A stretch of 64,000 nt of DNA, from NCBI RefSeq assembly GCF_001677475.2, contig NZ_CP015229.1; one strand, given 5' to 3'. Numbering within the stretch: the stretch's first letter is position 1; each line of letters starts with the position of its first letter. This document shows positions 19,765 through 63,735 of this stretch, piece after piece. Source of the DNA: Escherichia coli. GTDB lineage: Bacteria; Pseudomonadota; Gammaproteobacteria; Enterobacterales; Enterobacteriaceae. The translations under genes were made by a program, and so were the position numbers. Below the pieces are notes generated by a model. The model was not told the DNA's origin. It searched no databases and saw only the letters and a program-made list of their open reading frames with translations.

Positions 19765-19811
19765 GGACTACCCAGAATATTGACAACAATAAGCGCCACT
19801 ATAAAAGCATA

Positions 19812-21032: not shown

Positions 21033-21040
21033 ACTTTCTC

Positions 21041-23049
<2,009 letters not shown>

Positions 23050-47052: not shown

Positions 47053-48054
47053 TTGCCTGCGCGTTTAAGCCAGCCTCGTATCAGGGGGCTGGTTTAGGCG
47101 TTTTGAATCAACGGGTTCCATGGTGTTGTTCATTTAATCACTGTTTTAGTATCAATTTTCAATAGTATCCTTTCATAGGACTACTCTGGATGCGTTCACC
47201 TTCATTGTCGCTCTAAGCAACTAGATCCTCAGAAATCTCCAGTTAGGTTGCATCCTTCCTTACACACTTTCCTGAAACTTCAGGGTAAGGTGAGAAAGCC
47301 GCCATCACTTTTTCTTATTCCAGCATCTAAATAAATTCCGAATTTTGCTATTAATATCGCTACCGCAATAAAAACAGATAGTAAAGAGAGTAATATATAC
47401 TTTAGTGATATGTTAAGAATAATTGATTGTTAACATATCTAATGGGATAAGATGTGTTTCTGTTAATGAAAATATTCAAGATTTATAGTTGATAATTAAA
47501 ATACACTCGATATCTCAGCCCTTTCTATGCAAGATGCAATTTTATAAGCTGTCCATTTTTTATATGGAGGCGGTAGCGTGTTTGTTACTCGTGATTTTAT
47601 TGGTATGGTGAATATGTTGGGATTGTTAAATACATAACGGCATATCAGTTCCGGTCATTGTAAATATGGGTAATTGCTTAATGTTATTAGTGATTACCGT
47701 TTGAAAGATAAAGAGTGCTGTAAAGCGGTGATAGACATTACATTCATGATTAAAAAACAGAACCTGTCAATAAATAATTCATTTATTAAAAAGGACGACT
47801 TCTATTATGACGGAATATTATCTCAATGAGACGGTTTGCAAATACAGAGCCAGTTTCTCCGGGGTAACGAGCAGGTGTACCAGTGTCAGGTGGCATTTGT
47901 ATTGCCGGGTGAGCGGGTCATGATGGCCTTCACCTACGCCCGAACCACACCGCTGACCCCGGCAGATATGACGCGCTGGGCTGAAATTAAAAAGAATCTG
48001 CGCTTCAGGATGCGGCAGGAAGCCGGGACGAATTAATCACACAGGGAACGGGAC

Positions 48055-51000
48055 ATGGAAGAGGCATTCTGGGCGGCAAGGCAGGGTGATGCCCTGCTGC
48101 ATACGTCGTTTATGGCAGATGTGCTGGGGGCAGTTGTAGAGGTTGCCGCCACAGCCCTGGTGGATGTTCTGGTTGTCGGAACCATGGCGGCGCTGGGCGG
48201 AGTTGAAGTGGCAACGCTGGGCTGCTCAACCATTTTAGCGATCGGTATAGCAACAGCGGTATTTATGTCGTATCAGGGCTGGAATGACCGAATCAGTAGG
48301 GAAAGTGAGCAACTGGCGAACTGGCTTTTCCCGCCTCAGATTGAAGGTTACATCCTCACCGGCTCTGGCGACACATGGATCAACAGCAAACCTGCCGCGC
48401 GGGCCGCGGCGACTGCGGCATCGCGGCAGGACATTGAGGCGCAGGAGGCGCAGGCGAAGGCGGAACAGGAAGAAGCGCAGCGTCAGGAGGATGCCAGAAC
48501 GTTCCTGGATGTGGCCGGGGAATATCTGGAAATGGCGGGGGCCATAGCCCTGGCGGTTAACCCGGTGACAGGGCCTGTGCTGATGTCCCGGGCGCTGCAC
48601 GACCAGCTCAGTACGGAAGAAGGGCGTTCTGAAATGGTGGATGGCGTGACACATTTTGTGTCGGAACTATGGCAGCCCACCGTGGCCAGTGCGGCCCCGG
48701 GCTCCACCCCGACCCCTGACGATAAAATCGACTGCCATAAACATCCCTCCTCACTGACGCAGTTTCTCGCACAAAAAAAAGCCGCCTTTCTGGATGACCC
48801 CCTGGGAACGGCCCTTAACCTGCTGAGTCCGGGCGGTATGCTGGAAACCGCCTTTCAGGGAGTGAATGCGGTTATTGGCAGCATCAGTAATCTGTTCAAA
48901 GGCGATGATGAACCGCCCGCAGCGGAATATATCGCGGAAGGCGCGCGGGATGTGCGTATCAACAGCCAGCCGGCGGCACGCAGCGGGGCACGCTGCACCT
49001 GCGAGGCCAGGGTGGTGAATGAGCCGGGGAACGGGGCGTTTGTGTCACCGGATGTCCGCATTGGCGGTCCGTTACTGGTGGTCAGGGATATCAGAAGCGG
49101 CAGGTCGCAGATAACCCTGGTGGCAACCGTGGCGCTGATGTTTCTTCGCCCGGGCAAAATGCTTTCTAAAATCGCCTGTTTTGCTGCCAGTGTCGGGATG
49201 GGGGTGATGACGCAGAAGGCCATCAGTGCCCTTCCGCATCCGGTCAATGCCGCCACCGGAGCCAAATATCTGGCCGATGACGATGATTTTGACTTCAGTC
49301 TGCCGGGCCACTTTCCGCTGGACTGGCAGCGCGTGTACAGCAGTCGTGACGACCGCACGGAAGGGATGTTCGGGCAGGGCTGGAGTGTAATGTATGAAGT
49401 CAGCCTCGAGCGCACGCCGGGTACTGCTGACGAAAACTGTATGACCTTTGTGTCGGGCATGGGACGACGTCTGGATATGGAGGCCGTGCTGCCGGGGAGC
49501 GGGTTTTACAGCCCCGGCGAAGGACTGGCAGTACGGCGGGGTGAGCAGGGGCACTGGCTTATCAGCAGCGATGACGGGCAGTTTTTTCTGTTTGAGGCCG
49601 ACCCGCGTCACCCGCAGCGCCAGCGGCTGAAAATGCTGGGCGACCGCAACAGCAACTGTCTGAATCTGTACTACGACGAGCTGGGGCGCATCACGCAAAT
49701 CAGCGGTGAACAGCAGCGTCCGTGCATCCGTCTGCATTATGAACTGGCGGCGCATCCCCGGCGGGTGACACAGATTTATCAGCATTTCCCTGAGATGGCT
49801 CCTTTACTGCTGCGTCGTTACCGCTATGACGAGGCCGGCGACCTGAACGGCGTGTACGACAGCACGGGGCACCTGCTGCGCGAGTTTGCTTACGACGAAA
49901 ACCACTGCATGACCCTGCACCGCCAGCCGGGCGGCGAAGGGTATTATTACCAGTGGGGCTGGTATGAAGGCCCGGATGACGCAGCGTGGCGGGTGACGGG
50001 GCACCACACGGACAGCGGTGAACAGTACCGGCTGGCGTGGAGCCTGGCGGCACGCAGGCTGTGCGTGACGGACGGGCTGGGGCGCACGCGTTATCATCAG
50101 TGGGACGCGCAAAATCAGGTGACGGCGTACCAGGACGAAGCCGGGCAGGTGACGACGTTCCGCTGGAGCGACGAAGAACGGCTGTTACTGGGAATGACCG
50201 ATGCGCAGGGCGGCAAATGGCGCTATGTGTATGACCGGCAGGGGCATATCACGGAGACGCACGACCCGCTGGGGCGGGTGGCACAGACACAGTGGCACCC
50301 GGTGTGGCACCAGCCGGAAACGGAGGTGGACGCGGCGGGGAACAGCTGGTGCTGTGAGTACGATGAACGCGGCAATCTTCTTGCGGTGACCGACCCGCTG
50401 CAGCAGAACACCCGGTATCAGTATGACCGCCACGGCCAGGTGGTGCAGATAACGGATGCGCGCGGGGGGAATAAATACCTTCAGTGGAACGAAGACGGGC
50501 AGCTCATGCGGCACACGGACTGTTCCGGCTCGCAGACGGCCTGGTTCTACGACGAACGCACGCGGCTGATACGGATGACAGACGCGCAGAGCCACAGCAC
50601 GCGCTACGGGTATGACGACAGCGGCCACCTGACGGAGGTGATACTGGCGGACGGCCGCACGGTGAATTACCAGTCGGACGCGGCGGGCAGGCTGGTGAAG
50701 TACACCAGCCCGATGGGGAGGATAACGCGCTGGCAGCGGGACGGGCAGGGCCGGGTGCGCAGCCGGACAGACGCGACGGGGCGCAGGACGGCGTTCGGGT
50801 ACGATGCCTACGGGCGTCTGGTCACGCTCACGAACGAGAACGGAGAAAGCTACCGGTTCCGCCATGACGTGCTGGACCGTCTGGCGGAGCAGATAAATCC
50901 GGACGGCTGCCGCCAGACGTACCGCTACAACGCGCTGAACGCGGTCACGGAAGTGGTGTTCACCGGGGACCGGGGCGGTGAAATCCGCCACCGGCTGGCA

Positions 51001-52737
51001 CGTGATGCGGCGGGCCGGCTCACGGCAAAGGAGACAGCCGATGGCCATACGGAATACGTCCATGATGCGGCAGACCAGCTACTGGAAATCCGCCGCCGAC
51101 GGTCGGATGCCGGGGAAACAGACGCACCGGAGATTATCCGTTTCAGTTACGACAGACTGGGGCGGATGCTGACCGAGGAGACGGCGCAGGGCGTCCTGAC
51201 CCATCAGTACGATGAACTCAGCAACCGGACAGCCACCACCTTTCCGGATGGCAGAACGCAGCGTCATCTGTACTACGGCAGCGGCCATCTCCAGCAGATA
51301 AATCTGGACCGGGAGGTCATCAGCGAGTTCACACGTGACGCCCTGCACCGGGAAGTGCTCAGAAGTCAGGGGCGACTGAGCACGCGGCAGCTTTATGACC
51401 CCGCCGGGCGGCTGAAGCGCAGGGAGACATACAGCGGGATGCGCGGGGTGGTACCGGAGACGTTCACGGACCGGCAGTACAGCTACAGCGGCGAGGATGA
51501 ATTGCTGAAGACGCGGCACAGCCGGCGGGGGGAAACGGATTACTTCTACGACCCCACGGGGCGCATCACGGCGTGCCGCTCGGAGGATGAGAGGTATCTG
51601 GCGAGCTGGCAGTACGACGCGGCGGGAAACCTGCTGGGGAGGCGCGCGGGGGAAAGGGCCACGGCAGAAAACAGCGTGGTGCCGTTCAACCGGCTGATGT
51701 CTTACCGTGGTGTGCACTACCGTTATGACGAATTTGGCCGGACGGTGGAAAAGGAGGGCCGGAGCGGCACGCAGAGTTACCGTTATGATGCGGAACACCG
51801 GATGGTGGAAGTGACGACAGCGCGGGGGACATACCGGTATGTGTACGATGCGCTGGGGAGGCGGACGGAAAAACAGCACATCAGCCCTGACGGTAAACCG
51901 TACAACCGGACGACATTTTTATGGGACGGAATGCGGCTGGCGCAGGAGAGCAGGCCGGAGGGAATAAGCAGCCTGTATATCTACAGCGACCCGGGGAGTT
52001 ATGAACCGCTGGCGCGGGTGGATAAGGCGGGCAAAGAGGGCCCGAACCGGATACTGTATTTTCACACGGATGTGAACGGTGCGCCGGAAGAGATGACGGA
52101 CAGTGACGGGAAAATCGTGTGGGAGACGGGGTATCAGGTCTGGGGTAACACGATACAGGAGAAGGACCACGGCGGGGTGGAGCAGAACCTGCGCTACCAG
52201 GGACAGTACCTCGACAGGGAAACGGGGCTGCATTACAATCTGCACAGGTACTATGATCCGGATGTCGGGCGGTTCATGGTAACGGACCCGATAGGGCTGG
52301 CGGGGGGACTGAATCTTTACCAATACTCACCGAATCCAATAAGTTGGATCGACCCGCTGGGATTAACAGGGGAGTGGGTTAATCCCAAAGATATTAATTT
52401 TTCTCAAAGAACAATATCACCTCATGATTATGCCGATATTATGCGTAATGGTGGTTGGGATTGGGACAGGTCTCCATTAAGAGTAATTGATATTGATGGG
52501 CAATTAGTTTCTTATGATAATAGGCGATTAGACGCAGCTCTAGAGGCCGGATTAGATAAGGTTAAAGTCATTAGAGTTGACCCTAATGCTCCTCATCCTG
52601 ACTCATCTACTGGAAAAACATGGTTACAAAAATTCCGAGAGAGATTTAGAGATCGAAGAAATATAAAGGCCGGTGGAATAGTACCAGATAAAGGATTAAA
52701 TTCTCGACCGGAAAGAACATCAAGAGGTTGCAAATGA
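48055..52737 (+). CDS. Rhs-family polymorphic toxin with prePAAR motif, N-terminal TM segments, PAAR motif, YD-repeat shell and variable C-terminal toxin domain
   Basis: 1560-aa ORF; N-terminus MEEAFWAARQGDALLH fits AARxxDxxxH; hydrophobic segments at residues ~20-70; SKPAARA PAAR motif; many YD repeats; [27 protein letters not shown] demarcation before a unique ~130-aa tip. Confidence 0.85.
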   Translation: MEEAFWAARQGDALLHTSFMADVLGAVVEVAATALVDVLVVGTMAALGGVEVATLGCSTILAIGIATAVFMSYQGWNDRISRESEQLANWLFPPQIEGYILTGSGDTWINSKPAARAAATAASRQDIEAQEAQAKAEQEEAQRQEDARTFLDVAGEYLEMAGAIALAVNPVTGPVLMSRALHDQLSTEEGRSEMVDGVTHFVSELWQPTVASAAPGSTPTPDDKIDCHKHPSSLTQFLAQKKAAFLDDPLGTALNLLSPGGMLETAFQGVNAVIGSISNLFKGDDEPPAAEYIAEGARDVRINSQPAARSGARCTCEARVVNEPGNGAFVSPDVRIGGPLLVVRDIRSGRSQITLVATVALMFLRPGKMLSKIACFAASVGMGVMTQKAISALPHPVNAATGAKYLADDDDFDFSLPGHFPLDWQRVYSSRDDRTEGMFGQGWSVMYEVSLERTPGTADENCMTFVSGMGRRLDMEAVLPGSGFYSPGEGLAVRRGEQGHWLISSDDGQFFLFEADPRHPQRQRLKMLGDRNSNCLNLYYDELGRITQISGEQQRPCIRLHYELAAHPRRVTQIYQHFPEMAPLLLRRYRYDEAGDLNGVYDSTGHLLREFAYDENHCMTLHRQPGGEGYYYQWGWYEGPDDAAWRVTGHHTDSGEQYRLAWSLAARRLCVTDGLGRTRYHQWDAQNQVTAYQDEAGQVTTFRWSDEERLLLGMTDAQGGKWRYVYDRQGHITETHDPLGRVAQTQWHPVWHQPETEVDAAGNSWCCEYDERGNLLAVTDPLQQNTRYQYDRHGQVVQITDARGGNKYLQWNEDGQLMRHTDCSGSQTAWFYDERTRLIRMTDAQSHSTRYGYDDSGHLTEVILADGRTVNYQSDAAGRLVKYTSPMGRITRWQRDGQGRVRSRTDATGRRTAFGYDAYGRLVTLTNENGESYRFRHDVLDRLAEQINPDGCRQTYRYNALNAVTEVVFTGDRGGEIRHRLARDAAGRLTAKETADGHTEYVHDAADQLLEIRRRRSDAGETDAPEIIRFSYDRLGRMLTEETAQGVLTHQYDELSNRTATTFPDGRTQRHLYYGSGHLQQINLDREVISEFTRDALHREVLRSQGRLSTRQLYDPAGRLKRRETYSGMRGVVPETFTDRQYSYSGEDELLKTRHSRRGETDYFYDPTGRITACRSEDERYLASWQYDAAGNLLGRRAGERATAENSVVPFNRLMSYRGVHYRYDEFGRTVEKEGRSGTQSYRYDAEHRMVEVTTARGTYRYVYDALGRRTEKQHISPDGKPYNRTTFLWDGMRLAQESRPEGISSLYIYSDPGSYEPLARVDKAGKEGPNRILYFHTDVNGAPEEMTDSDGKIVWETGYQVWGNTIQEKDHGGVEQNLRYQGQYLDRETGLHYNLHRYYDPDVGRFMVTDPIGLAGGLNLYQYSPNPISWIDPLGLTGEWVNPKDINFSQRTISPHDYADIMRNGGWDWDRSPLRVIDIDGQLVSYDNRRLDAALEAGLDKVKVIRVDPNAPHPDSSTGKTWLQKFRERFRDRRNIKAGGIVPDKGLNSRPERTSRGCK

Positions 52738-53168
52738 AAAATATTATTCAGTTATGGGAAGATGGTTTATTACCGATAAAAGATGCTATTTACTTTTCTA
52801 ACGGTGAATCTTTCCTTTGTAAAATAACATCTTACCCTACTCCTTGTATTGAGAAAAATGGTGAGTTTGATTTCTCTGCCTTTTATGAAAAAAATAAAGA
52901 TGAAGTTACTGATATTGATAAGTCTAGAGAAGTTAAATTAGCGAATAATTGCTATTGTTGCATTGGAGAAGGTAGTTATGGTTCTGAAGGATTTATCGCA
53001 TATCTCGATGAAAATAAAAACTTAGTTTGGGTTCTTTATTCCGAAGAATCTAATCCATTTATTAATATAACTGAATATACATCTGATATTATTATAGTAG
53101 AATCAAGTTCTAATATTAGACTAAGAATAAATATAAACAATCCAGTGGATTTAGAATTGGCATTTTAA
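52734..53168 (+). CDS. Putative cognate immunity protein of the Rhs C-terminal toxin
   Basis: ATG overlaps the rhs TGA stop (ATGA); AT-rich 144-aa ORF directly downstream of a toxin tip. Confidence 0.6.
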   Translation: MKNIIQLWEDGLLPIKDAIYFSNGESFLCKITSYPTPCIEKNGEFDFSAFYEKNKDEVTDIDKSREVKLANNCYCCIGEGSYGSEGFIAYLDENKNLVWVLYSEESNPFINITEYTSDIIIVESSSNIRLRININNPVDLELAF

Positions 53169-53169
53169 A

Positions 53170-53211
53170 TAAAAAGCCGGGTGAAATTAAATCTTCCCGG
53201 CTTTTTTATTA
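53170..53211. terminator. Hairpin terminator (AAAGCCGGG-loop-CCCGGCTTTTTT), first of four copies of this motif
   Basis: Perfect GC stem flanked by A and T runs between the immunity gene and the convergent symE-like gene; similar hairpins at 57795-57835, 60412-60452 and 62816-62902. Confidence 0.7.
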
Positions 53212-53212
53212 T

Positions 53213-53542
53213 TTAACTCTCGTTCAGCACACTAAACATCCCGTTCCGCATCCCCTTAACCACCTGTTTAACCTGATAAAGTTCTTCCCGCAGCTCCTGC
53301 ACCTCGTCACTGTCAGCGATGATGGTCAGGTACCCCTCCGAAATCTTCACCGTGACACCCCGCCCGGTATCAAATCCCGCCTCAGCCAGCCAGTCGCCCT
53401 TGAGGTGCAGGCTGGGATGTTGTGAATAATACCGGGCTATACCTGTTGTGCGGTCCTGGTGGCGGGTTCTGACATAGCCGACTTTATAGCGGCGCTGGGT
53501 TTTGGAAATGGTGACTTCTGGCGTAATATCGTGTTCAGCCAT
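53213..53542 (-). CDS. SymE-like protein (type I toxin family, AbrB/MazE-like fold), full-length copy
   Basis: 109-aa ORF; core HLKGDWLAEAGFDTGRGVTVKISEGYLTII resembles SymE KGxWLxxAGFxxGxxVxV motif as recalled. Confidence 0.6.
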   Translation of the reverse strand: MAEHDITPEVTISKTQRRYKVGYVRTRHQDRTTGIARYYSQHPSLHLKGDWLAEAGFDTGRGVTVKISEGYLTIIADSDEVQELREELYQVKQVVKGMRNGMFSVLNES

Positions 53543-53781
53543 GATTAACTACTCCTGTTAGTTGCTTGTGGTGAGCGGCTGTTACAGGCGGCAACCTGTA
53601 GCAGTCGCGTTAAATATCAACGCATTACCTTCATTACCTGCTTCATCTTCTCCTGGGTGATCGCCATATCCAGAATACGGCAGATCACTTCCTGATCGTC
53701 TGCTTTAAGCTCATCAACCTGCTTACACAGTTCTTTTAACCGCTTGTTTTTTATATCGAAAACATCGCGGAAGAAGAAGGT

Positions 53782-54861
53782 GTGCGCCAGGCGGCCTACG
53801 CGCTCAAGCTGTTGCAGTCGGACGGGGAACTGACCATCGCCAGTACGGGCAAGGATGACGCCAGCGGTAACCTGGTCACCAAACAGTATACGGTGAAAGG
53901 CCCGGTGATGCTGATGCTGACCACCACCGCCATCGATGTTGACGAGGAGTTACTCAACCGCTGTCTGGTGCTGACGGTGAACGAATCGCGGGAACAGACG
54001 GAAGCTATCCACGCGGCGCAGCGTTACGCGCAGACGCTGGAAGGACTGCTGGCGGCTAACGAAAAAAGTTACATCACGCAGCTTCACCAGAACGCGCAGC
54101 GGCTGCTGCGCCCGCTCAACGTGGTGAACCCGTTCGCCTCGCAGCTCACGTTCATGAGCGACAAAACCCGCACCCGGCGCGACCACATGAAATACCTGAC
54201 GCTGATCCAGGCGATCGCCCTGCTGCACCAGTACCAGCGGGAGATCAAGCGCGTGGAGCATCGCGGGCAGGTGGTGGAGTACATCGAGGTCACGCGGGAG
54301 GACATCGCCCTGGCGAACCGCCTGGCACATGAAATACTCGGGCGCACCCTGGATGAAATGCCGCCGCAGACGCGCAAACTGTTAACCCTGATCCAGCAAT
54401 GGGTGAGCGACAGCGGTCAGGCGCGTGAGGCGATGCGGTTCACCCGTAAACAACTGCGTGACGCGGTACAGTGGGGCGACACGCAGCTCAAGATCCACCT
54501 GGCGCGGCTGGTCGAAATGGAATATCTGCTGGTCCACCGTCTCGGGCTGACGTTCTGCTATGAACTGCTGTTCGACGGGGACGGCAGCGCAGACACCGCG
54601 CACCTGTGCGGGCTGATCGACGTACCGGAACCACCGTATGACGTCGCCCGGTCGGGGGAAACGGTGAAGCAGCTGGCCTCTGGTCGGGCAGTGGTCGGCG
54701 GTCAGTCGGGTAAGGAAAAAACCGCCTCAGACCAGACACCACGAGGCTTACAGGCCGGAGCGGTCGGGGCAGAGGAAAAAGCCCTGTTCCGGCAGAACGC
54801 AAAAAAACCGTCCCGCAATCATACTGCGGCCCGTCCGGGCCGGAGCAACACGGAAGCATAA
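53782..54861 (+). CDS. Hypothetical protein, apparently 5'-truncated (no ATG; frame closed by TAA just upstream); function unknown
   Basis: 1080-nt open frame in GC-rich DNA, far longer than the overlapping opposite-strand ORFs; no family recognised. Confidence 0.35.
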   Translation: MRQAAYALKLLQSDGELTIASTGKDDASGNLVTKQYTVKGPVMLMLTTTAIDVDEELLNRCLVLTVNESREQTEAIHAAQRYAQTLEGLLAANEKSYITQLHQNAQRLLRPLNVVNPFASQLTFMSDKTRTRRDHMKYLTLIQAIALLHQYQREIKRVEHRGQVVEYIEVTREDIALANRLAHEILGRTLDEMPPQTRKLLTLIQQWVSDSGQAREAMRFTRKQLRDAVQWGDTQLKIHLARLVEMEYLLVHRLGLTFCYELLFDGDGSADTAHLCGLIDVPEPPYDVARSGETVKQLASGRAVVGGQSGKEKTASDQTPRGLQAGAVGAEEKALFRQNAKKPSRNHTAARPGRSNTEA

Positions 54862-55065
54862 GTACGACTTCATCCGGTCGGGGCAACGGCTGCAATAGTC
54901 GGCCCCTGGTCGGCAGTCAGTCGGCGGGTAGTCGGGGTGCGTAAAACCCCCGCAGGCCGCGCCCGGCAAGGTTCAGGCCATGAAGCGGTCGGCCTGCCTG
55001 AAAATCACTGTTCCATCCTCTGTTCTTCTCTCTGTCGTACCGTAATCTCAATCAGGACAATCATC

Positions 55066-56095
55066 ATGACAAAACCCATCCCTCCGGGGCCGGAGGAACT
55101 TTACCTCAGCCGCCAGAACCTGACGCAGCGCCAGTATGTGGTGGTGTGGCTGGAATACCTGACGGCACAGAACTACAGCGCGATCAGCGTAAGCGACTAT
55201 CGCGAACGGGTGTTACCGTTCGTGACATGGTGTGAGGAGCGCGGGCTGATGTACGCGCCGCAGGTCAGCCAGCCGCAGCTTGAAAGCTATCAGCGCCACC
55301 TTCACGGCTACCGTAAGGCGGACGGCCATCCGCTGGCGGTCAGCGGTCAGGTGGGCCGGATAAGCGCGATAAAAATCTTTTACCGCTGGCTGCTGAAGCG
55401 GCATGTGATCCTGTACAACCCCGCCGATCTGCTGGAACTGCCAAAGCCGGACAAACGGCTTCCGGCGCAGGTGTTCAGTAAGGGCGAGACGCGGCAGGTG
55501 TTACAGAGCCTTGATATCAACACGCCCGTTGGCCTGCGCAACCGGACAATCCTTGAGGTGCTGTGGAGTACCGGGATCAGGCGGATGGAGCTGGCCAGCC
55601 TGATGTTGTGGGATGTTGACACCGGGCGCGGTGTGGTTAACGTGCGGCAGGGTAAGGGGCGTAAGGATCGGGTGGTTCCGGTGGGCCATGTGGCGCTGGG
55701 ATGGCTGGCAAGACGTGCGACCACAGATGACGCGCCAGCGCGACAGTGGTCATCTGTTCGTGACGAAATACGGCAGCGGGATGAAACGCAACACGCTGAC
55801 GGCGATGGCAGGCACCGCGATCCGGGAAACGGCACGGATCGACAAACCGGGCGCGTGCCATATCTTCCGGCACTCGATGGCGACGCAGATGCTGGACAAT
55901 GGCGCAGACACGCGGCATATCCAGGCGATCCTCGGCCATGAGAAGCTGGAGACGACGCAGATCTACACGAAGGTGGCCATAAAGCCGTTGCAGAAGGTTC
56001 ATGCGCGGACGCACCCGGCAGAGAAGCGGCGAAGGGAAAAGCGCGTGCAGCAGCCGGACGAGGCCACCGTATCGCCGGACAGCCTGAAAAGTTAG
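55066..56095 (+). pseudogene. Tyrosine recombinase (phage-integrase family) with frameshift
   Basis: N-terminal SAM-like domain in one frame to ~55710 ([13 protein letters not shown]), catalytic domain ([16 protein letters not shown]...[13 protein letters not shown]...[13 protein letters not shown]) in the other frame from ~55700; single indel inferred. Confidence 0.65.
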
Positions 56096-57005
56096 GTGGC
56101 GATCCCTGTAAGGCCGTGGGGTGCGGTGCAGGGCAGACAACCGCCTTCCCTGGCGGTTGACTGCCCCCTGCCAGCGGCGTGCGCGGGGGTAAATGCCGTC
56201 CGCCCCGTGGAGGCAGCCGCGCCCCATGCGACCATGCAGCACGGGGCAAACGTCATTCAACATAATGCGGATTATGCGCACTCTCGCCGGTCGGCAATGA
56301 CGGCGAACCCGATCCGCTGTGCGCGGCTCGTGTTCGCACAATCCGCATTATGTCTGACGCCCCCGCGTTCAGCCCCGTGGTCCGTGCAGCGCAAAGCTTC
56401 GCTGGCGCTCCGCTCTGCTGCCGGGTGCGGTGTTCTTCTGTGGCCCCGCAGTCGCCGCCATCCCTGGCGGCTCCGGTGCCGTTCTGCGGCAGCGTCATCG
56501 TGTGGCAGTCAGTCAGAAAAGGGTGTCGGCCTGGCGGCCTCCGCTTGTAAGGGCTTTATGCCCGCCCGGCGTCGTCTGGCTGCGGCGGCTCGTGCCGCGC
56601 AAAAAGGCCGCGCGTCACTCGTTCCCGCCTCGCCAGCTTCCGCTGCCCGCCCCGGTCAGGTGTGGTCATGCAAAGGCAACCCCCGGTCAGGCAGCGGTGC
56701 CACAGAGCGCCGTTCCGTCGCTTGCGGACTCTCTGCCGCCCGCACCCGCAGACCCCGCGCCGTGGCCCCGCCATGCCGCCGGAGGCGTCCTGGCGGCCCC
56801 CCGTCACGGGGTGCCGGAAACGGACTTAGTGGAAAGCGGAATGACAGGCGGTGGTGGTGGTGCTATGGTGAGCGGGCGTGAAAATGCGCGTCGGGAAAGT
56901 CGGGTTAACGTGCTGTTAAATAAGTAAAAGGTGATAGCCGGGAAGCCAGAAACGGCGCGGGCGGTAGCGTGTTAAAAAGTGTGACCTGCACCGGATCGTT
57001 CCGAT

Positions 57006-57515
57006 GACCCGATAGGACTGCGGGGTGGATTAAATCTCTATCAATATGCGCCGAATCCGTTGAGCTATATTGATCCTCTTGGCCTTTGTAAATTAAGGGG
57101 AAGTAATGGGCGCTTCAGAAGTGCTCAGAATATTCAGGAAGAAATAGGCGGACTACCTAATTTTTCAGGGAAGACTCCAGGGCAAATACGACAAACTTTG
57201 CGTAATCGAGTTTATTCGTCGGTACAAGCGCATAGTGGTGGAGAGGTCTGGACAAAAGCATTACCTGACGGAAATACTGTTGCTGTGAGAATTGACCCGG
57301 CAAATCCTCGCTCACCTTCACATTATGCTGATGCTGTGCCTCATGCTCATATTGAAACAGTTCCAACGTCCAGTGTTTCTAATGGGAATTATCGCCCACG
57401 AGACGTGACTGGCAGGCATACTGCCACTGGTGGGATTTCTGACCGAGGAACGAATCCGAATCATAATGCTGATGTTCACATTCCAATGTCTCCGGGACGA
57501 TTCCCATATAATTAA
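57006..57515 (+). CDS. Orphan Rhs C-terminal toxin module (DPIGL homology patch plus toxin tip), no upstream core
   Basis: Frame opens with [28 protein letters not shown] then a unique ~140-aa domain; no ATG at the patch. Confidence 0.6.
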   Translation, partial: DPIGLRGGLNLYQYAPNPLSYIDPLGLCKLRGSNGRFRSAQNIQEEIGGLPNFSGKTPGQIRQTLRNRVYSSVQAHSGGEVWTKALPDGNTVAVRIDPANPRSPSHYADAVPHAHIETVPTSSVSNGNYRPRDVTGRHTATGGISDRGTNPNHNADVHIPMSPGRFPYN

Positions 57516-57526
57516 TGTGAGGTTTT

Positions 57527-57790
57527 ATGAATATCCGAAATCAATATAATGAAGCCTTAAATAAATTAGAAGTTGATGTTAATGATGGTTTAAGAGATTT
57601 AATAAACATATATTGTGTAGCTATTGATTCTTTTGAAAATGATATCGTTGACTCGATTGCTTTATACGTGATTGATATGGGAAATAAAGATACTTGTCGA
57701 TATCTACAAGAAATATTATCAGAGAATGAAGATCCTTATTTAGTAAAAGAATTTAATGCATGGATGAAAGAAATTAAGAAAAAATATTAA
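57527..57790 (+). CDS. Putative immunity protein for the orphan toxin at 57006-57515
   Basis: AT-rich 87-aa ORF 11 nt downstream of the toxin stop with RBS-like GAGG. Confidence 0.5.
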   Translation: MNIRNQYNEALNKLEVDVNDGLRDLINIYCVAIDSFENDIVDSIALYVIDMGNKDTCRYLQEILSENEDPYLVKEFNAWMKEIKKKY

Positions 57791-57836
57791 AATAAAAGCC
57801 GGGACGGTTATTAAATCTTCCCGGCTTTTTTATTAC

Positions 57837-58070
57837 TTAACTTTCGTTCAGCACACTAAACATCCCGTCACGCATTCCCTTAACCGCCTGTTTAACCAGA
57901 TAAAGTTCCCTGCGCAGTTCCTGTACTTCGTTGTTATCCGCAAGCAGGATCAGACATCCTTCCGAGATCTTCACGGTGACGCCCGTGCCGATCTCAAATC
58001 CCGCTTCTCTCAGCCATTTTGCGCTGATTTTGATTACCGGCGTGTCGCTGCGGTTGGGCAGATAACCCAC
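57837..58070 (-). CDS. SymE-like protein, short paralog (77 aa)
   Basis: KISAKWLREAGFEIGTGVTVKISEGCLILLADNNEVQELRRELY...; synonymous differences from copy 1 in this frame. Confidence 0.55.
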   Translation of the reverse strand: MGYLPNRSDTPVIKISAKWLREAGFEIGTGVTVKISEGCLILLADNNEVQELRRELYLVKQAVKGMRDGMFSVLNES

Positions 58071-58263
58071 GGTACAGTGGCGCTGTGTTTTGGAAATGAT
58101 ATTCTTATATTTAATCTGCTGATTAGATAGTAAAATTAACTTCGTGCAGATAGCTTACTTTATCAGGGTGCGGCGGTAGTGTATGAACTATGACGTGATG
58201 GTTTTAGTGATTTATATACGAAAATGACAGTACGATCCGGACTTCGAATAGATTGCGCGATTT

Positions 58264-58413
58264 GACCCGATAGGGCTGGCGGGGGGATTAAATCTCTATC
58301 AATATGCGCCTAATCCGTTAAGTTATATTGATCCACTTGGATTGTGTCCTAAAACTGACTTTAAATGGGGAAATCCCAGGGAAAGATCACGTAATGCTGC
58401 TTTTTTGTACTAA
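58264..58413 (+). pseudogene. Truncated orphan rhs C-terminal fragment
   Basis: [49 protein letters not shown] then stop, just before the ISAs1 element. Confidence 0.5.
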
Positions 58414-58419
58414 ACAATT

Positions 58420-59700
58420 CGCATTTTATGTTTAAAAATTGAGATATTCCTCATTACATAAAGCTGTTTTTTATTGCTTATACATGATCAAATACTCCTT
58501 ACATAATTAAGGAGAACAAAATGGAACTTAAAAAATTGATGGAACATATTTCTATTATCCCCGATTACAGACAAGCCTGGAAAGTGGAACATAAATTATC
58601 GGATATTCTACTGTTGACTATTTGTGCCGTTATTTCGGGTGCAGAAGGCTGGGAAGATATAGAGGATTTTGGGGAAACACATCTCGATTTTTTGAAGCAA
58701 TATGGTGATTTTGATAATGGTATTCCTGTTCACGATACCATTGCCAGAGTTGTATCCTGTATCAGTCCTGCAAAATTTCACGAGTGCTTTATTAACTGGA
58801 TGCGTGACTGCCATTCTTCAGATGATAAAGACGTCATCGCAATTGATGGAAAAACGCTCCGGCATTCTTATGACAAGAGTCGCCGCAGGGGAGCGATTCA
58901 TGTCATTAGTGCGTTCTCAACAATGCACAGTCTGGTCATCGGACAGATCAGGACGGATGAGAAATCAAATGAAATTACAGCTATCCCTGAACTTCTTAAC
59001 ATGCTGGATATTAAAGGAAAAATCATCACAACTGATGCGATGGGTTGCCAGAAAGATATTGCAGAGAAGATACAAAAACAGGGAGGTGATTATTTATTCG
59101 CTGTAAAAGGAAACCAGGGGCGGCTAAATAAAGCCTTTGAGGAAAAATTCCCACTGAAAGAATTAAATAATCCAGAGCATGACAGTTACGCAATTAGTGA
59201 AAAGAGTCACGGCAGAGAAGAAATCCGTCTTCACATTGTTTGCGATGTCCCTGATGAACTTATTGATTTCACGTTTGAATGGAAAGGACTGAAGAAATTA
59301 TGCGTGGCAGTCTCCTTTCGGTCAATAATAGCAGAACAAAAGAAAGAGCCAGAAATGACGGTCAGATATTATATCAGTTCTGCTGATTTAACCGCAGAGA
59401 AGTTCGCCACAGCAATCCGAAACCACTGGCACGTGGAGAATAAGCTGCACTGGCGTCTGGACGTGGTAATGAATGAAGACGACTGCAAAATAAGAAGAGG
59501 AAACGCCGCAGAATTATTTTCAGGGATACGGCACATCGCTATTAATATTTTAACGAATGATAAGGTATTCAAGGCAGGGTTAAGACGTAAGATGCGAAAA
59601 GCAGCCATGGACAGAAACTATCTCGCGTCAGTCCTTGCGGGGAGCGGGCTTTCGTAATCTTGCCCTGGGGGAAATCCAAAAAGTAAGCCTACATACGGTC
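58420..59700 (+). mobile_element. ISAs1-family (H-repeat) element; ends not precisely mapped
   Basis: Contains the 378-aa H-repeat-associated transposase ORF; boundaries approximate. Confidence 0.6.
58521..59657 (+). CDS. ISAs1-family transposase (H-repeat-associated protein, YhhI/YbfD-like)
   Basis: 378-aa ORF with typical H-rpt protein content; K-12 rhs loci carry homologues. Confidence 0.8.
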
Positions 59701-59726
59701 ACACATTTTCTGAACACGGACAGAAA

Positions 59727-59993
59727 ATGAAACCAAGTCAGTTAATTGATCGTGCCAGAAATAAAGGTCATCAAGTAGGACAATATCTCGATGATAATTC
59801 TGCTGCTGATTTTATTGCTTCTGTTGCCAAAAAAGGTCCGGGTGTGCATGATGTGCCATTGCCTACAAATATAAAAGGTCGAGGTTATTTGCCTGATGGG
59901 ACAGAGGTCGTTCCAGATATGGCAAGGGTTGTTGTAAAACCCGATGGTTCTGTACGAACATCGTTCCCATTCAATTCATCACACACCAACTAA
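59727..59993 (+). CDS. Hypothetical protein, possibly the distal part of an orphan toxin split by the ISAs1 insertion
   Basis: 88-aa ORF starting 70 nt after the H-rpt transposase stop, followed by an immunity-like ORF. Confidence 0.35.
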   Translation: MKPSQLIDRARNKGHQVGQYLDDNSAADFIASVAKKGPGVHDVPLPTNIKGRGYLPDGTEVVPDMARVVVKPDGSVRTSFPFNSSHTN

Positions 59994-60010
59994 AGTAATG
60001 AAGGGTATAT

Positions 60011-60391
60011 ATGAATGAAATAGATAAGATCTGTAGTGAACTTGGCGTACCAGTTGGTGATAAGTTTACACAAGATTGGGCTTATGAACTGCCTGAAAAA
60101 TATCGAACTAAAGAGTGGCTAAGTAAATACATTGCTGCATACTTAAACAATGGCTACTCCCAAAAAGGGAAGACTGAATTAATGACTTTAGCCCTTGATG
60201 TCTGTAATGATTTATTATCTTCTGGAGTACCCCCATCAGATGAGGTTATTATAAAAGTACTCAACGCCCTGCGTGATAATTACAAAAATCATATAGATCT
60301 TATTAATTATTGGTCCTTGGATGATGAATCTTTAGATGACAGTTTTGCATTAACTCCTGAAATAAGGGAGCTAAAAAGAAGATTGATTTAG
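60011..60391 (+). CDS. Putative immunity protein
   Basis: AT-rich 126-aa ORF followed by the shared hairpin terminator and a convergent symE-like gene. Confidence 0.45.
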   Translation: MNEIDKICSELGVPVGDKFTQDWAYELPEKYRTKEWLSKYIAAYLNNGYSQKGKTELMTLALDVCNDLLSSGVPPSDEVIIKVLNALRDNYKNHIDLINYWSLDDESLDDSFALTPEIRELKRRLI

Positions 60392-60452
60392 GATTATAAT
60401 ATTATTAAGTTATAAAAAGCCGGGAATATAATCTTCCCGGCTTTTTTATTAT

Positions 60453-60695
60453 TTAACTCTCGTTCAGCACACTAAACATCCCGTCACGCATCCCCTTAAC
60501 CGCCTGTTTAACCTGATAAAGTTCCCTGCGCAGTTCCTGTACTTCGTTGTTATCCGCGAGCAGGATCAGGCAACCTTCCGAGATCTTCACGGTAACGCCC
60601 GTACCGATCTCAAATCCCGCTTCTCTCAGCCATTTGGCGCTGATTTTGATCACCGGCGTGTCGCTGCGGTTGGGCAGATGCTGCGCTGGCAGCAC
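60453..60695 (-). CDS. SymE-like protein, paralog with replaced 5' end
   Basis: Near-identical to the 57837-58070 copy from codon ~5 onward; upstream sequence replaced by the rhs core fragment at ~60700. Confidence 0.5.
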   Translation of the reverse strand: MLPAQHLPNRSDTPVIKISAKWLREAGFEIGTGVTVKISEGCLILLADNNEVQELRRELYQVKQAVKGMRDGMFSVLNES

Positions 60696-60704
60696 GACGG
60701 CAGA

Positions 60705-62083
60705 GCCAGACGTACCGTTACAACGCGCTGAACGCGGTCACGGAAGTGGTGTTCACCGGGGACCGGGGCGGTGAAATCCGCCACCGGCTGGCACGTGATG
60801 CGGCGGGCCGGCTCACGGCAAAGGAGACAGCCGATAGCCGAACGGAATACGTCCATGATGCGGCAGACCAGCTACTGGAAATCCGCCGCCGACGGTCGGA
60901 TGCCGGGGAAATGGACGCACCGGAGATTATCCGTTTCAGTTACGACAGACTGGGGCGGATGCTGACTGAGGAGACGGCGCAGGGCGTCCTGACCCATCAG
61001 TACGATGAACTCAGCAACCGGACAGCCACCACCTTTCCGGACGGCAGAACGCAGCGTCATCTGTACTACGGCAGCGGCCATCTCCAGCAGATAAATCTGG
61101 ACCGGGAGGTCATCAGCGAGTTCACACGTGACGCCCTGCACCGGGAAGTGCTCAGAAGTCAGGGGCGACTGAGCACGCGGCAGCTTTATGACCCCGCCGG
61201 GCGGCTGAAGCGCAGGGAGACATACAGCGGGATGCGCGGGGTGGTACCGGAGACGTTCACGGACCGGCAGTACAGCTACAGCGGCGAGGATGAACTGCTG
61301 AAGACGCGGCACAGCCGGCGGGGGGAAACGGATTACTTCTACGACCCCACGGGGCGCATCACGGCGTGCCGCTCGGAGGATGAGGGGTATCTGGCGAGCT
61401 GGCAGTACGACGCGGCGGGAAACCTGCTGGGGAGGCGCGCGGGGGAAAGGGCCACGGCAGAAAACAGCGTGGTGCCGTTCAACCGGCTGATGTCTTACCG
61501 TGGTGTGCACTACCGTTATGACGAATTTGGCCGGACGGTGGAAAAGGAGGGCCGGAGCGGCACGCAGAGTTACCGTTATGATGCGGAACACCGGATGGTG
61601 GAAGTGACGACAGCGCGGGGGACATACCGGTATGTGTACGATGCGCTGGGGAGGCGGACGGAAAAACAGCACATCAGCCCTGACGGTAAAGCGTACAACC
61701 GGACGACATTTTTATGGGACGGAATGCGGCTGGCGCAGGAGAGCAGGCCGGAGGGAATAAGTAGCCTGTATATCTACAGCGACCCGGGGAGTTATGAACC
61801 GCTGGCGCGGGTGGATAAGGCGGGCAAAGAGGGCCCGAACCGGATACTGTATTTTCACACGGATGTGAACGGTGCGCCGGAAGAGATGACGGACAGTGAC
61901 GGGAAAATCGTGTGGGAGACGGGGTATCAGGTCTGGGGTAACACGATACAGGAGAAGGACCACGGCGGGGTGGAGCAGAACCTGCGCTACCAGGGACAGT
62001 ACCTCGACAGGGAAACGGGGCTGCACTACAATCTGCACAGGTACTATGATCCGGATGTCGGGCGGTTCATGGTAACGGACCCG
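60705..62083 (+). repeat. Near-identical direct repeat of the main rhs core 3' region (50914-52292)
   Basis: Nucleotide and protein near-identity to the main rhs over ~1.38 kb with a handful of substitutions (read by eye). Confidence 0.8.
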
Positions 62084-62518
62084 ATAGGGCTGAGAGGCGG
62101 ATTAAACTTATACCAATACGCGCCTAATCCGTTAAGCTGGATCGATCCTCTTGGATTAAGTGCCGCCTCTGATTTACCTCAATTAAAAGGAAGATCCCCA
62201 GGGGCAATAGGTTCTATTCTTACTGATAATGGATTCAATTTAGATAAACAAACAAGTACCGGGAATCAGACTTGGAGCCACGCCGATGGTTCTAAAGTTC
62301 GTGTCGATCCCTATGGAAACCAAAGTATGACTATGAAAAACGGTGATCCATTACCGAAATCAGGAGCTAACGCACATGTGCATAAATATGATCCCGGTGA
62401 GATACCGCTGAATGACAGAGGCATTCCGAGTACAAATCCAAATGAAACACATATAGGGATCAGGAATCCAAATGATTATTCTACAAAACGAGGGCGGGCC
62501 CATGGGTGCGGCGTATAA
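60746..62518 (+). CDS. Orphan Rhs fragment: C-terminal part of YD-repeat core plus an alternative C-terminal toxin tip
   Basis: 590-aa ORF; first ~455 aa match the main Rhs, ending [27 protein letters not shown], then a unique ~120-aa tip. Confidence 0.8.
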   Translation: MVFTGDRGGEIRHRLARDAAGRLTAKETADSRTEYVHDAADQLLEIRRRRSDAGEMDAPEIIRFSYDRLGRMLTEETAQGVLTHQYDELSNRTATTFPDGRTQRHLYYGSGHLQQINLDREVISEFTRDALHREVLRSQGRLSTRQLYDPAGRLKRRETYSGMRGVVPETFTDRQYSYSGEDELLKTRHSRRGETDYFYDPTGRITACRSEDEGYLASWQYDAAGNLLGRRAGERATAENSVVPFNRLMSYRGVHYRYDEFGRTVEKEGRSGTQSYRYDAEHRMVEVTTARGTYRYVYDALGRRTEKQHISPDGKAYNRTTFLWDGMRLAQESRPEGISSLYIYSDPGSYEPLARVDKAGKEGPNRILYFHTDVNGAPEEMTDSDGKIVWETGYQVWGNTIQEKDHGGVEQNLRYQGQYLDRETGLHYNLHRYYDPDVGRFMVTDPIGLRGGLNLYQYAPNPLSWIDPLGLSAASDLPQLKGRSPGAIGSILTDNGFNLDKQTSTGNQTWSHADGSKVRVDPYGNQSMTMKNGDPLPKSGANAHVHKYDPGEIPLNDRGIPSTNPNETHIGIRNPNDYSTKRGRAHGCGV

Positions 62519-62530
62519 GGTAAGAAATTA

Positions 62531-62815
62531 ATGAGTGTTGAATATGTTATACATGTCGATGATAAAGTAGATAATTTACTTTCTTTTATTGTCGAGAGAA
62601 TAAAGGAAAATCAACCATCCTCTCGAATTAATACTGACGGTTCACTTTGGATTCCATCTAGCTATTCAAATTGGATTGATTTTTCAATAGAAGACCATGA
62701 GGATGGTTTTTTTATTGTAAATAATTTAAATGGAAGTGATAGAGATAAATTATTTTCACTGATATTTACTGCCTTTCATGAATTATCTATAAAATATGAA
62801 ATAGAAGAAGTCTAA
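62531..62815 (+). CDS. Putative immunity protein for the orphan toxin tip at 62120-62518
   Basis: AT-rich 94-aa ORF 12 nt downstream of the toxin stop. Confidence 0.5.
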   Translation: MSVEYVIHVDDKVDNLLSFIVERIKENQPSSRINTDGSLWIPSSYSNWIDFSIEDHEDGFFIVNNLNGSDRDKLFSLIFTAFHELSIKYEIEEV

Positions 62816-62828
62816 TGAAAGCCGGGTT

Positions 62829-62880
62829 TTTGGACTGACCCCATAAAGTTGGACACCCAACTGATTAAGGTGCAGTCCAA
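62829..62880. mobile_element. Miniature inverted-repeat element resembling back-to-back IS3-family terminal repeats, inserted in a terminator loop
   Basis: TTGGACTGACCCCATAAAGTTGGACA ... CAGTCCAA; resembles the IS IR TGAACTGCACCCCAAATGTTGGACA at 1044; the other three hairpin copies lack this ~52-bp segment. Confidence 0.4.
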
Positions 62881-62902
62881 CATATTCCCGGCTTTTTATT
62901 AT

Positions 62903-63136
62903 TTAACTCTCGTTCAGTACACTAAATATCCCGTCACGCATACCCTTAACCACCTGTTTAACCTGATAAAGTTCCCTGCGCAGTTCCTGTACTTCGTTGT
63001 TATCTGCAAGCAGGATCTGGCAGCCTTCCGAGATCTTCACGGTAACGCCCGTGCCGATCTCAAATCCCGCTTCTCTCAGCCATTTTGCGCTGATTTTGAT
63101 TACCGGCGTGTCGCTGCGGTTGGGCAGATAACCCAC
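62903..63136 (-). CDS. SymE-like protein, short paralog (77 aa)
   Basis: Near-identical to the 57837-58070 copy. Confidence 0.55.
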   Translation of the reverse strand: MGYLPNRSDTPVIKISAKWLREAGFEIGTGVTVKISEGCQILLADNNEVQELRRELYQVKQVVKGMRDGIFSVLNES

Positions 63137-63329
63137 GGTACAGTGGCGCTGTGTTTTGGAAATGATATTTTTGTATTTAACCTGCTGATTAGATAGTAAA
63201 ATAAACTTCGTGCAGATAGCTTACTTTATCAGGGTGTGGCGGTAGCGTATGAACTATGATGCGGTGGTTTCAGGAATGTACGTACAAAATCGATAGTACG
63301 ATCCTCCAATCAGGTAGATTTGCTGCCCT

Positions 63330-63734: not shown

Positions 63735-63735
63735 T

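Follow-up and report, generated by a model that had tools for sequence, protein, structure and literature searches.

The window considered here is a stretch of 64,000 nucleotides from a genome of Escherichia coli (contig NZ_CP015229.1). It carries an rhs gene of full length (48055–52737, plus strand) at the kdp-ybfA...ybgA locus, which is the rhsC position. This main gene encodes a protein of 1,560 amino acids in which prePAAR and PAAR regions are followed by DUF6531, YD/RHS repeats, the RHS core, a DPIGL patch and a C-terminal tip, designated tip M. Pfam matches include RHS_repeat (2.6e-79, in 11 stretches), RHS (9.7e-15), DUF6531 and PAAR_motif (33.8 bits, cutoff 27). Residues 8–17 read AARQGDALLH, a prePAAR motif of the form AARxxDxxxH that was reportedly defined by Ahmad et al. 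in 2020. The exact protein is present in GenBank from E. coli (ANO87881.1/WP_065226381.1). The possibility that the main gene is a mosaic broken at 50912 was rejected, as the gene shows 98.5% identity over its whole length (47829–52361) with the vgrG-linked rhs in strain VCSW7.

The left edge of the rhs element (47829–48054, plus strand) carries the remnant of an Eag/DcrB-family chaperone gene (ORF 47836–48036, 66 aa). Only the final ~66 codons of this gene are left, and its Pfam DcrB match spans only profile positions 77–126 of 127. Homology with the VCSW7 locus begins at 47829, within the DcrB-related gene, and the counterpart in loci L004–L007 is annotated as 'missing N-terminus'. No vgrG lies between ybfA and rhs in the window. 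An intact vgrG-Eag-rhs paralogue is found at another locus in other strains. With the chaperone truncated and vgrG absent from the window, delivery of either of the two toxins described below would thus rely on genes elsewhere.

Tip M (52300–52737, plus strand) consists of a conserved linker and an AT-rich toxin of ~123 aa without a Pfam family. It is followed by a putative immunity gene of 144 aa (52734–53168, plus strand), which overlaps the rhs stop codon. Among 5,426 complete E. coli genomes, tip M occurs only in strain A34, on a main rhs of a different core type, and the exact immunity protein occurs in 42 blocks of public assemblies.

Four dissociated tips are present downstream of the main gene, together with several other modules. 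A full-length symE-family gene of 109 aa (53213–53542, minus strand; Pfam SymE_toxin, 6e-20) comes first and is associated with two antisense RNA signals from Rfam, an isrA-like signal at 53343–53471 (107.5 bits, above the gathering score) and a symR-like signal at 53537–53611 (39 bits, under the gathering score). Next is a GC-rich insert (53763–57000, plus strand), a degenerate primase/XerC-like tyrosine-recombinase module (Pfam Phage_integrase) made up of a primase fragment (53782–54861), the recombinase (54937–55941) and a hypothetical gene (56096–56881). Alignment with the intact modules in loci L001 and L007 revealed that the insert lacks about 2.2 kb. Such modules, with a DnaG-like primase and an XerC-like recombinase, are multicopy (roughly 250 copies) and lie inside rhs tip arrays at the four E. 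coli loci inspected.

The first short orphan module (57005–58126, plus strand) contains a DPxGL/linker patch (57005–57089), a tip, an 87-aa ORF (57527–57790) and a truncated symE (57837–58070, minus strand), and belongs to repeat families D1 and D3. Its longest exact match to the main rhs is 12 bp, and thus it is not a recombination substrate. The second short module (58263–60391, plus strand) carries a tip designated X, which is split by ISEc1 (58376–59667; transposase 58521–59657, Pfam DDE_Tnp_1) and is followed by the remainder of tip X and its immunity gene (60011–60391). From 59668 to 62159 the window is collinear with strain APEC O2-211, in which tip X on the main gene, an immunity gene, a truncated symE and an orphan core follow one another. 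At the right-hand end, short orphan module 4 (63329–64000, plus strand) holds a DPxGL patch and a Tox-ART-HYD1 tip (63441–63734; Pfam, 1.9e-14); the stretch 63330–64000 matches 17520–18190 of locus L004 at 97.6%. In APEC O2-211 the Tox-ART-HYD1 tip is carried by the long orphan. Exact matches between the short orphans and the main gene do not exceed 24 bp, which leaves the long orphan as the only substrate.

This long orphan begins where a 5'-truncated symE of 80 aa (60453–60704, minus strand) is fused to an rhs core (60705–62092, plus strand) at the microhomology GACGGC. The core frame is open but has no N-terminal delivery region. It is closed upstream by a TGA at 60647–60649, and its starts are internal GTG or ATG codons only, the first listed being the GTG at 60746. 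A distinct tip, O, begins at 62093 (62093–62518, plus strand) and comprises a linker and a 119-aa toxin without a Pfam or PDB match. Behind it lie a putative immunity gene of 94 aa (62531–62815, plus strand) and another truncated symE (62893–63192, minus strand; ORF 62903–63136). The 5'-truncated core, the distinct tip and the 94-aa ORF behind it identify the fragment as an orphan rhs-CT/rhsI module. Like tip M, tip O was found in one of the 5,426 complete genomes; the exact protein of its immunity gene occurs in 58 blocks of public assemblies. Searches of Pfam and the PDB returned no usable family for tips M and O or for their immunity proteins. Both are putative toxin/immunity pairs, as suggested by AT-rich tips with small downstream ORFs in the expected positions.

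The final 1,388 bp of the core in the main gene (50912–52299, copy A) and the core of the long orphan (60705–62092, copy B) form a direct repeat. Within-window alignment is ungapped over the whole 1,388 bp, with 13 mismatches (99.06% identity). Along the diagonal at offset 9793, identity rises from ~25% to 98–100% between 50912 and 52299, and drops to 70% and then below 50% directly past the end. The last shared base is the final base of the Leu codon in DPIGL. Uninterrupted identity extends over 305, 263 and 252 bp in the three longest blocks. Seven of the differing nucleotides cause five amino-acid changes and the other six are synonymous; from A to B the substitutions include G997S/H998R (GHTEYV versus SRTEYV) and R1180G (EDERYL versus EDEGYL). 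Chance cannot account for 1.4 kb of sequence matching at 99%. An earlier note, written from the letters of the window, had described a near-identical direct repeat of the rhs core, had quoted these substitutions, and had placed all other divergence after the DPIGL patch; the pairwise alignment bears out each of these points. The coordinates in the note were 2 nt out of register (60705 pairs with 50912, not 50914) and missed ~9 bp of the repeat on its 3' side. The separation of ~9.8 kb that it gave is accurate as the start-to-start spacing (9,793 bp), but not as the DNA separating the copies, which amounts to 8,405 bp.

The same layout is found in other E. coli strains. In the collection of 5,426 complete genomes, 53 contain the junction of truncated symE and core together with the same 1,388-bp orphan core. 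Four junction-bearing loci were inspected (APEC O2-211, 21F61, SCU-171 and 200164), and in all four the orphan lies at the kdp-ybfA locus, with a core 97.7–98.3% identical to that in the window. SCU-171 and 200164 each carry two tandem long-orphan units with the same junction. These loci resemble the window in site, 80-aa truncated symE, junction and core, and the immunity gene of tip X and the ART-HYD1 tip are common to them. What sets the window apart is its rare tips, M and O, and a long orphan that does not follow the main gene directly, as theirs does, but lies beyond extra modules. Main and orphan cores differ at 1–21 positions within each inspected genome, the 21F61 pair at a single site. 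Tip X belongs to the full-length gene of APEC O2-211 and 21F61 but to the first orphan of SCU-171 and 200164, and the symE/core junction bears at least four different tips. The earlier note considered the repeat unusually long and fresh-looking, which does not hold for E. coli: core and junction recur in those 53 genomes, and the 13 differences in the window fall inside the range of 1–21 and are little fewer than the 15–17 that separate its copies from a vgrG-linked rhs in another strain.

Core alleles are mosaic among main and orphan genes. The four-gamete test is failed by 34% of informative site pairs, compatibility between neighbouring core sites exceeds that of all 2,000 permutations (PHI-like test, p<0.0005), and homogenised patches are seen in the core within genomes. 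Main and orphan cores thus recombine at the population level.

No close relative of the window backbone is present in the complete-genome collection, in which the best match is 97.8%; the comparison within the lineage was thus based on draft and Logan contigs. One such short-read contig, L011 (Logan ERR14024652), has the order kdpB-kdpA-ybfA-Rhs(1,556 aa)-immunity O-symE, with the immunity gene directly 3' of the full-length rhs. It differs from the upstream backbone of the window by 4 mismatches in 8,174 bp, and its tip O and immunity gene match the window without a mismatch over 840 bp. Both the stored and the fused state of tip O therefore exist on almost identical backbones. In its left part the L011 core is closer to the main copy of the window (1 mismatch, versus 3 to the orphan), and in its right part to the orphan (1 mismatch, versus 8 to the main copy). 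By itself this pattern is no more than suggestive of a single crossover inside the core, at a Fisher p of 0.052 that is uncorrected for the choice of breakpoint. L011 carries about 12 changes relative to the orphan in the first 40 nt past DPIGL, and thus it is not the one-step product of the window sequence; the difference between the two can be read as a deletion or as an insertion. The L011 sample is not among the 10 places listed for the immunity gene of tip M, which is uninformative. A protein search that returned only proteins of at most 209 aa had indicated that tip O is never carried on a full-length Rhs. This was rejected: at 90%, full-length Rhs proteins are clustered together whatever tip they bear, so that the search was blind to tips on long proteins; the Rhs proteins of the window and of L011 fall into one such cluster of 7,194 members.

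Very likely, then, the repeat represents a core segment that occurs twice, at the 3' end of the core in a prePAAR-Rhs type VI effector gene of the expressed type and again in a presumably silent long orphan rhs-CT/immunity module. Owing to the direct orientation and shared codon register, a crossover between the copies would yield an intact Rhs of 1,556 aa ending in the tip at 62093–62518; the predicted fusion has no internal stop. Given perfect identity over as much as 305 bp, RecA-type recombination would have three possible outcomes. Firstly, a 9,793-bp unit would be deleted and the delivery part of the Rhs joined to tip O. Secondly, exchange between sister chromosomes would duplicate the unit, making the fusion while keeping the immunity gene of tip M. 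Thirdly, patch conversion of one copy by the other would keep the copies alike. In a simple deletion the immunity gene of the main rhs (52734–53168) would go as well, so that recombinants would be sensitive to their siblings. For this reason the duplication route of Koskiniemi et al. (2014) is preferred as the more viable one, and the tandem units in SCU-171 and 200164 demonstrate that array expansion is possible. The fusion to the alternative tip described in the earlier note thus agrees with frame and register, but the account was incomplete in that plain deletion drops the tip M immunity gene; its appeal to an established toxin-switching mechanism is well founded, as the arrangement matches the Rhs main/orphan switch shown experimentally (PMC3967940). 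Useful rates of switching in the window strain, and delivery of either toxin, are inferred. A double-crossover exchange of cassettes, with symE copies as the second arm, is unlikely, as the symE after tip M is only ~61–80% identical to the copies after the orphans.

The 5' end of the orphan may have been born once, through an illegitimate join of a symE gene to an rhs core at GACGGC. The unit of core, tip, immunity gene and truncated symE would later have been propagated and re-tipped through homologous recombination in the core (C-terminal displacement). A fixed fragment with a conserved junction and different tips in 53 genomes indicates a single inherited unit that has repeatedly been re-tipped. 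As a case of Rhs main/orphan recombination with C-terminal displacement, the window locus is typical and well preserved. It reveals no new principle; the mechanism is already known and the layout is common in E. coli. Rhs tip arrays are an enterobacterial route to diversified contact-dependent weapons, and this locus offers a clean natural example, in which a long, near-perfect homology arm is poised to swap two uncharacterised toxin/immunity pairs. With stored and deployed forms of tip O in public data, it is a convenient system for measuring how often switching occurs and what loss of the main immunity gene costs.

The closest experimental precedent is STM0291/STM0292 of Salmonella Typhimurium LT2, for which main/orphan switching was shown and recombination following duplication was proposed in view of the immunity loss on deletion (Koskiniemi et al., 2014; PMC3967940). 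Both systems have, behind a full-length Rhs, an orphan truncated at its 5' end, with the core in common as far as DPxGL and with its own tip and cognate immunity gene. Recombination in the common core gives a chimeric full-length Rhs in LT2 and is predicted to do so in the window. The homology is 522 bp at 95% in LT2 and 1,388 bp at 99.1% in the window; the repeat is thus longer and cleaner than the model, but ordinary within E. coli. In LT2 the two genes are adjacent, whereas the 8.4 kb between the copies in the window holds other orphans, an insertion sequence and a primase/recombinase remnant. The window locus also lies outside a T6SS island, its Eag chaperone gene is truncated, and switching is predicted here from sequence.

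Jackson and colleagues (2009; PMC2935791) found attached and dissociated cores within one locus to be identical. Similarly, in the window an intact gene has an array of dissociated tips downstream, its attached core and the dissociated one are near-identical (99.06%) and of the same clade, and a GC-rich core stands beside AT-rich tips. Their model predicts deletion or a circle from core-core recombination, and a circle excised from the window is predicted to be 9,793 bp. In contrast to the variable core lengths expected from that model, one fixed 1,388-bp fragment with one junction and various tips is found in 53 genomes. The mafB arrays of Neisseria, cited as analogues (Jackson et al., 2009; PMC2935791), and the orphan cdiA-CT/cdiI modules (Poole et al., 2011; PMC3150448) would be comparable in that 3' cassettes that lack a promoter, each equipped with an immunity gene, come after an expressed gene. 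There too, exchange needs common upstream homology. This resemblance is drawn from the literature only, and the protein families and secretion routes are different.

Two further readings are possible but rather improbable. In one, a promoter within the final ~100 nt of the core drives the tip and immunity gene of the orphan, which work intracellularly as a toxin-antitoxin module, the long core being incidental. This is compatible with main/orphan switching and has a precedent in Salmonella rhs-CT, in which internal P2 promoters were found upstream of PxxxxDPxGL, with similar sequences in E. coli (Starsta et al., 2020; PMC7043789). A sigma-70-like site, TCGACA-17-TACAAT (10/12), lies at 62004–62032 and has a twin in the main copy, but this match is statistically weightless: the promoter/terminator scan performed no better than on shuffled sequence, with 2 promoter sites against 3.5 expected. 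An internal module also leaves the conservation of a 1.4-kb core with a fixed junction unexplained. The other reading, about equally doubtful, is that the fixed symE/core junction marks a discrete cassette that spreads as a homologous-recombination circle, each integration of which turns the resident tip into a long orphan bearing that junction, and for which the primase/XerC-like modules may be the vehicle between strains. If so, the circular-intermediate model of Jackson and colleagues (2009) would gain a concrete molecular basis.

Still less probable is an inert relic, in which a deletion that also cut symE left only the 3' part of a second rhs, now decaying as the orphan, which has no role and resembles the main copy through slow divergence of the core. 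The junction does resemble a one-off microhomology-mediated deletion, the chaperone gene is truncated, and 5 of the 11 altered codons carry a non-synonymous change. Moreover, all copies of this core lineage are within about 2.5% of one another, and the 13 differences between the window copies compare with 15–17 between either copy and the vgrG-linked rhs of VCSW7 (main copy, 17). Decay is contradicted, however, by the 1.8-kb orphan frame, which is open, with immunity genes intact, in the window and in every inspected genome. One junction with at least four tips, also in tandem, requires repeated recombination via the core; the recombination tests are positive, and the fused state exists in L011. 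An assembly artefact, in which the repeat was duplicated or misplaced, has practically no standing: although Rhs cores are classic assembly break sites and many draft contigs of the lineage stop inside the repeat, the two copies are told apart by their flanks and by 13 fixed differences, a 5.50-Mb contig is the source of the main protein, the same architecture is present in many finished genomes, and the draft contig L012 reproduces 59669–64000 of the window with 1 mismatch.

The main rhs gene (48055-52737) lies in the E. coli kdpFABC-ybfA ... ybgA-phrB region, at the position of rhsC in K-12. Its product (1,560 amino acids) carries a prePAAR-like AARQGDALLH motif, PAAR, DUF6531, RHS repeats and an RHS core domain, and is exactly E. 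coli ANO87881.1, found on a 5.50-Mb contig. GC content is 0.61-0.66 in the core and 0.29-0.37 in the tips. Downstream of the main toxin tip (M) are putative immunity gene M (52734-53168) and a minus-strand, full-length symE with antisense signals resembling isrA and symR. A GC-rich, degenerate primase/tyrosine-recombinase module (53763-57000) and two short orphans come next; the second, with tip X, is interrupted by ISEc1 and has immunity X behind it. A truncated symE (80 aa) separates immunity X from the long orphan, a 5'-truncated rhs fragment with a core (60705-62092), toxin tip O (62093-62518) and putative immunity gene O (62531-62815). After it come the remains of another symE and a short orphan with a Tox-ART-HYD1 tip.

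Each tip/immunity module is closed by an oppositely oriented gene of the symE family (53213-53611, 57760-58126, 60443-60742 and 62893-63192), of which only the first is full length (109 aa), the other three being 5'-truncated. The antisense strand of the first copy matches Rfam isrA above the gathering score (107.5 bits), its 5' end gives a sub-threshold symR-like match, and the truncated copies give partial matches to Shigella Ssr1. The SymE-RHS gene neighbourhood was pointed out by Kawano (2007). ISEc1 (ISAs1 family, H-repeat; 58376-59667) interrupts tip X after about 88 nt, leaving the DPxGL patch (58263) on one side and the remaining tip with immunity X on the other. A copy about 97% identical lies upstream of rhs in strain EC554, and copies also occur elsewhere in the arrays of other strains.

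An earlier reading of the sequence by eye had proposed a near-identical direct repeat of the rhs core, and exact alignment bears this out: 50912-52299 and 60705-62092 match over 1,388 bp without gaps at 99.06% identity (13 mismatches), the proposed coordinates having been off register by 2 nt and a little too short. A repeat search of the window placed 50912 and 60705 in one family (300-nt seed). In a diagonal scan at offset 9793, identity rose from a background of about 0.25 to 0.94-1.00 across 50912-52299, then fell to 0.70 and below 0.5 beyond 52299; it stops at the last base of the DPIGL Leu codon. Perfect blocks of 305, 263 and 252 bp occur inside the repeat. Six mismatches are synonymous and seven give five amino-acid changes, among them the substitutions already read by eye (G997S/H998R and R1180G).

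The predicted geometry of a toxin switch also holds. The copies are in direct orientation and share a codon register, and joining the main gene up to 52299 to 62093-62518 gives, by computation, an ORF of 1,556 amino acids with no internal stops. It is well established that RecA recombination has a length threshold. The long orphan is the only realistic RecA substrate, since the other orphans match the main gene exactly over at most 24 bp. A single crossover on one chromosome would delete 9,793 bp, including immunity M, so that, provided the main toxin is delivered, recombinants would be susceptible to sibling cells. Because deletion loses the main immunity gene, Koskiniemi et al. (PMC3967940) argued for recombination after duplication, with one copy of the main immunity gene kept. 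Two tandem units with the junction of truncated symE and orphan core are present in strains SCU-171 and 200164, so that such expansions do become fixed. The recombination mechanism is supported.

The fused state itself, as predicted, was found in public data. A search of public assemblies with the exact immunity O protein retrieved a short-read contig (L011, Logan ERR14024652) with the order kdpB-kdpA-ybfA-Rhs(1,556 aa)-immunity O-symE and a backbone almost identical to the window: 4 of 8,174 positions differ 5' of the repeat, and none at 62133-62972 (toxin O, immunity O and part of symE). Its Rhs differs from the predicted fusion protein at eight residues. Left of about 51100 its core differs from the main copy at one site and from the orphan at three; to the right the counts are eight and one. 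Taken by itself, this sign of a crossover is weak (Fisher p=0.052). Neither window copy has the haplotype A-A-T that L011 shows at 51043/51047/51048, which speaks against a bubble-popping chimera of the two. About 12 differences are crowded into the first 40 nt 3' of DPIGL, indicating at least one more patch event between L011 and the window. Either deletion from a window-like array or insertion into a gene like that of L011 may relate the two. Among the 10 places listed (of 23 contigs), only L011 has a full-length rhs upstream of immunity O; the others show a window-like layout or break inside the repeat, and one draft contig (L012) has a single mismatch to 59669-64000.

Recombination through the core is also visible across strains. 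APEC O2-211 and 21F61 carry tip X on the full-length gene, SCU-171 and 200164 on orphan 1; the ART-HYD1 tip is on the long orphan in APEC O2-211, but in the window it forms a short orphan behind module O. In a set of 15 core copies, the four-gamete test failed for 34% of informative site pairs, and compatibility of neighbouring sites exceeded that in every one of 2,000 permutations. In some patches the copies of one genome are homogenised. The linker of about 22 codons after DPIGL (xGGLNLYxYxPNPxxWIDPLGL; 52300-52365, 62093-62158 and L011 9563-9628) is a mosaic, that of L011 starting like tip M, ending like tip O and partly matching the linker of strain VCSW7; its sequence suggests a second, short recombination hotspot directly 3' of the core. 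In draft E. coli/Escherichia assemblies (L019, L020, L021, L026), a different rhs array, adjoining ivy, fadE and CN-hydrolase genes, contains both immunity M and a 94-aa ORF equal in size to immunity O as short orphan modules. Therefore, these rare pairs circulate among several rhs loci.

The repeat had also been called unusually long and fresh, which did not hold. A 291-bp probe spanning the symE-core junction found it in 53 of 5,426 complete E. coli genomes (97.6% identity), and the four inspected (APEC O2-211, 21F61, SCU-171 and 200164) have it at the kdp-ybfA locus, like the window. The 13 differences of the window are typical beside 1 in 21F61, 2-14 in SCU-171, 13 in APEC O2-211 and 17-21 in 200164 over 1,388 bp. 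The vgrG-linked rhs of VCSW7 differs from the window copies at only 15-17 sites, so these are barely each other's closest relatives. Compared with the arm of the Salmonella experimental model (522 bp, 95%; PMC3967940), that of the window is longer and cleaner. The window is a typical, well-preserved case of an architecture that roughly 1% of complete E. coli genomes share. Identity of attached and dissociated cores of one locus was reported by Jackson et al. (PMC2935791); main/orphan Rhs modules, DPxGL demarcation, recombinational switching, tip arrays, ISAs1/H-repeat elements and the symE-RHS link have likewise been described. Both toxin/immunity pairs (M and O) are rare and uncharacterised.

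In most genomes the junction reads ...CAGCACGACGGC joined to TGCCGCCAGACG, with AGA in place of TGCC in the window and one orphan of 200164; the intact core counterpart is ...CCGGACGGCTGCCGCCAGACG. GACGGC is common to both sides, pointing to a single illegitimate join, which, as the sequences indicate, would have taken out about 2.85 kb of rhs sequence together with the 5' end of symE. Behind this one junction stand at least four tips (X, ART-HYD1, a fourth in 200164, and O), and the unit has therefore been inherited and re-tipped, not re-created. The fixed junction across different tips is only mildly new.

A recurring module, of which the GC-rich insert is a degenerate copy, contains in this order a minus-strand HTH regulator, a DnaG-like primase of about 980 aa (CHC2 zinc ribbon, Toprim and P-loop), a XerC-like tyrosine recombinase and a short patch of RHS DPxGL sequence with tip, immunity and symE. 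Further copies are at 19476-24255 and 27394-28292 of the 200164 locus (L007), 1-4492 and 8545-13339 of L029, and 13969-18453 of L001. The module is present in 62 of 5,426 complete E. coli genomes (median five chromosomal copies per genome); all inspected copies, some of them in tandem, are within tip arrays of rhs, and these arrays belong to two different loci. A literature search found no paper tying such modules to rhs, and their recurrence within rhs arrays is again only mildly new. They may be vehicles for tip cassettes.

Toxin delivery is uncertain here, because only the last ~66 codons of the Eag/DcrB-family chaperone gene remain 5' of the prePAAR-Rhs gene (47829-48054) and the window has no vgrG. 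APEC O2-211, SCU-171, 21F61 and 200164 carry this truncation in their annotation. Other strains have, at the ansP-yncE locus, an intact vgrG-Eag-rhs paralogue that shares this core, and by sequence the kdp-ybfA element looks like a copy of it beginning mid-chaperone. The orphan module may be expressed from an internal promoter and have a toxin-antitoxin-like role; a promoter-like site (62004-62032) falls in the region of the internal promoter placed upstream of the DPxGL motif in rhs (Starsta, 2020; PMC7043789), although the site is without statistical support. Elsewhere, close to the window's start, about 1.46 kb (1016-2475) shares 99% identity with a transposase region of the IS3 family (rve) that lies 3' of phrB in a draft contig (L009), and is therefore a mobile element occupying differing sites among related genomes.
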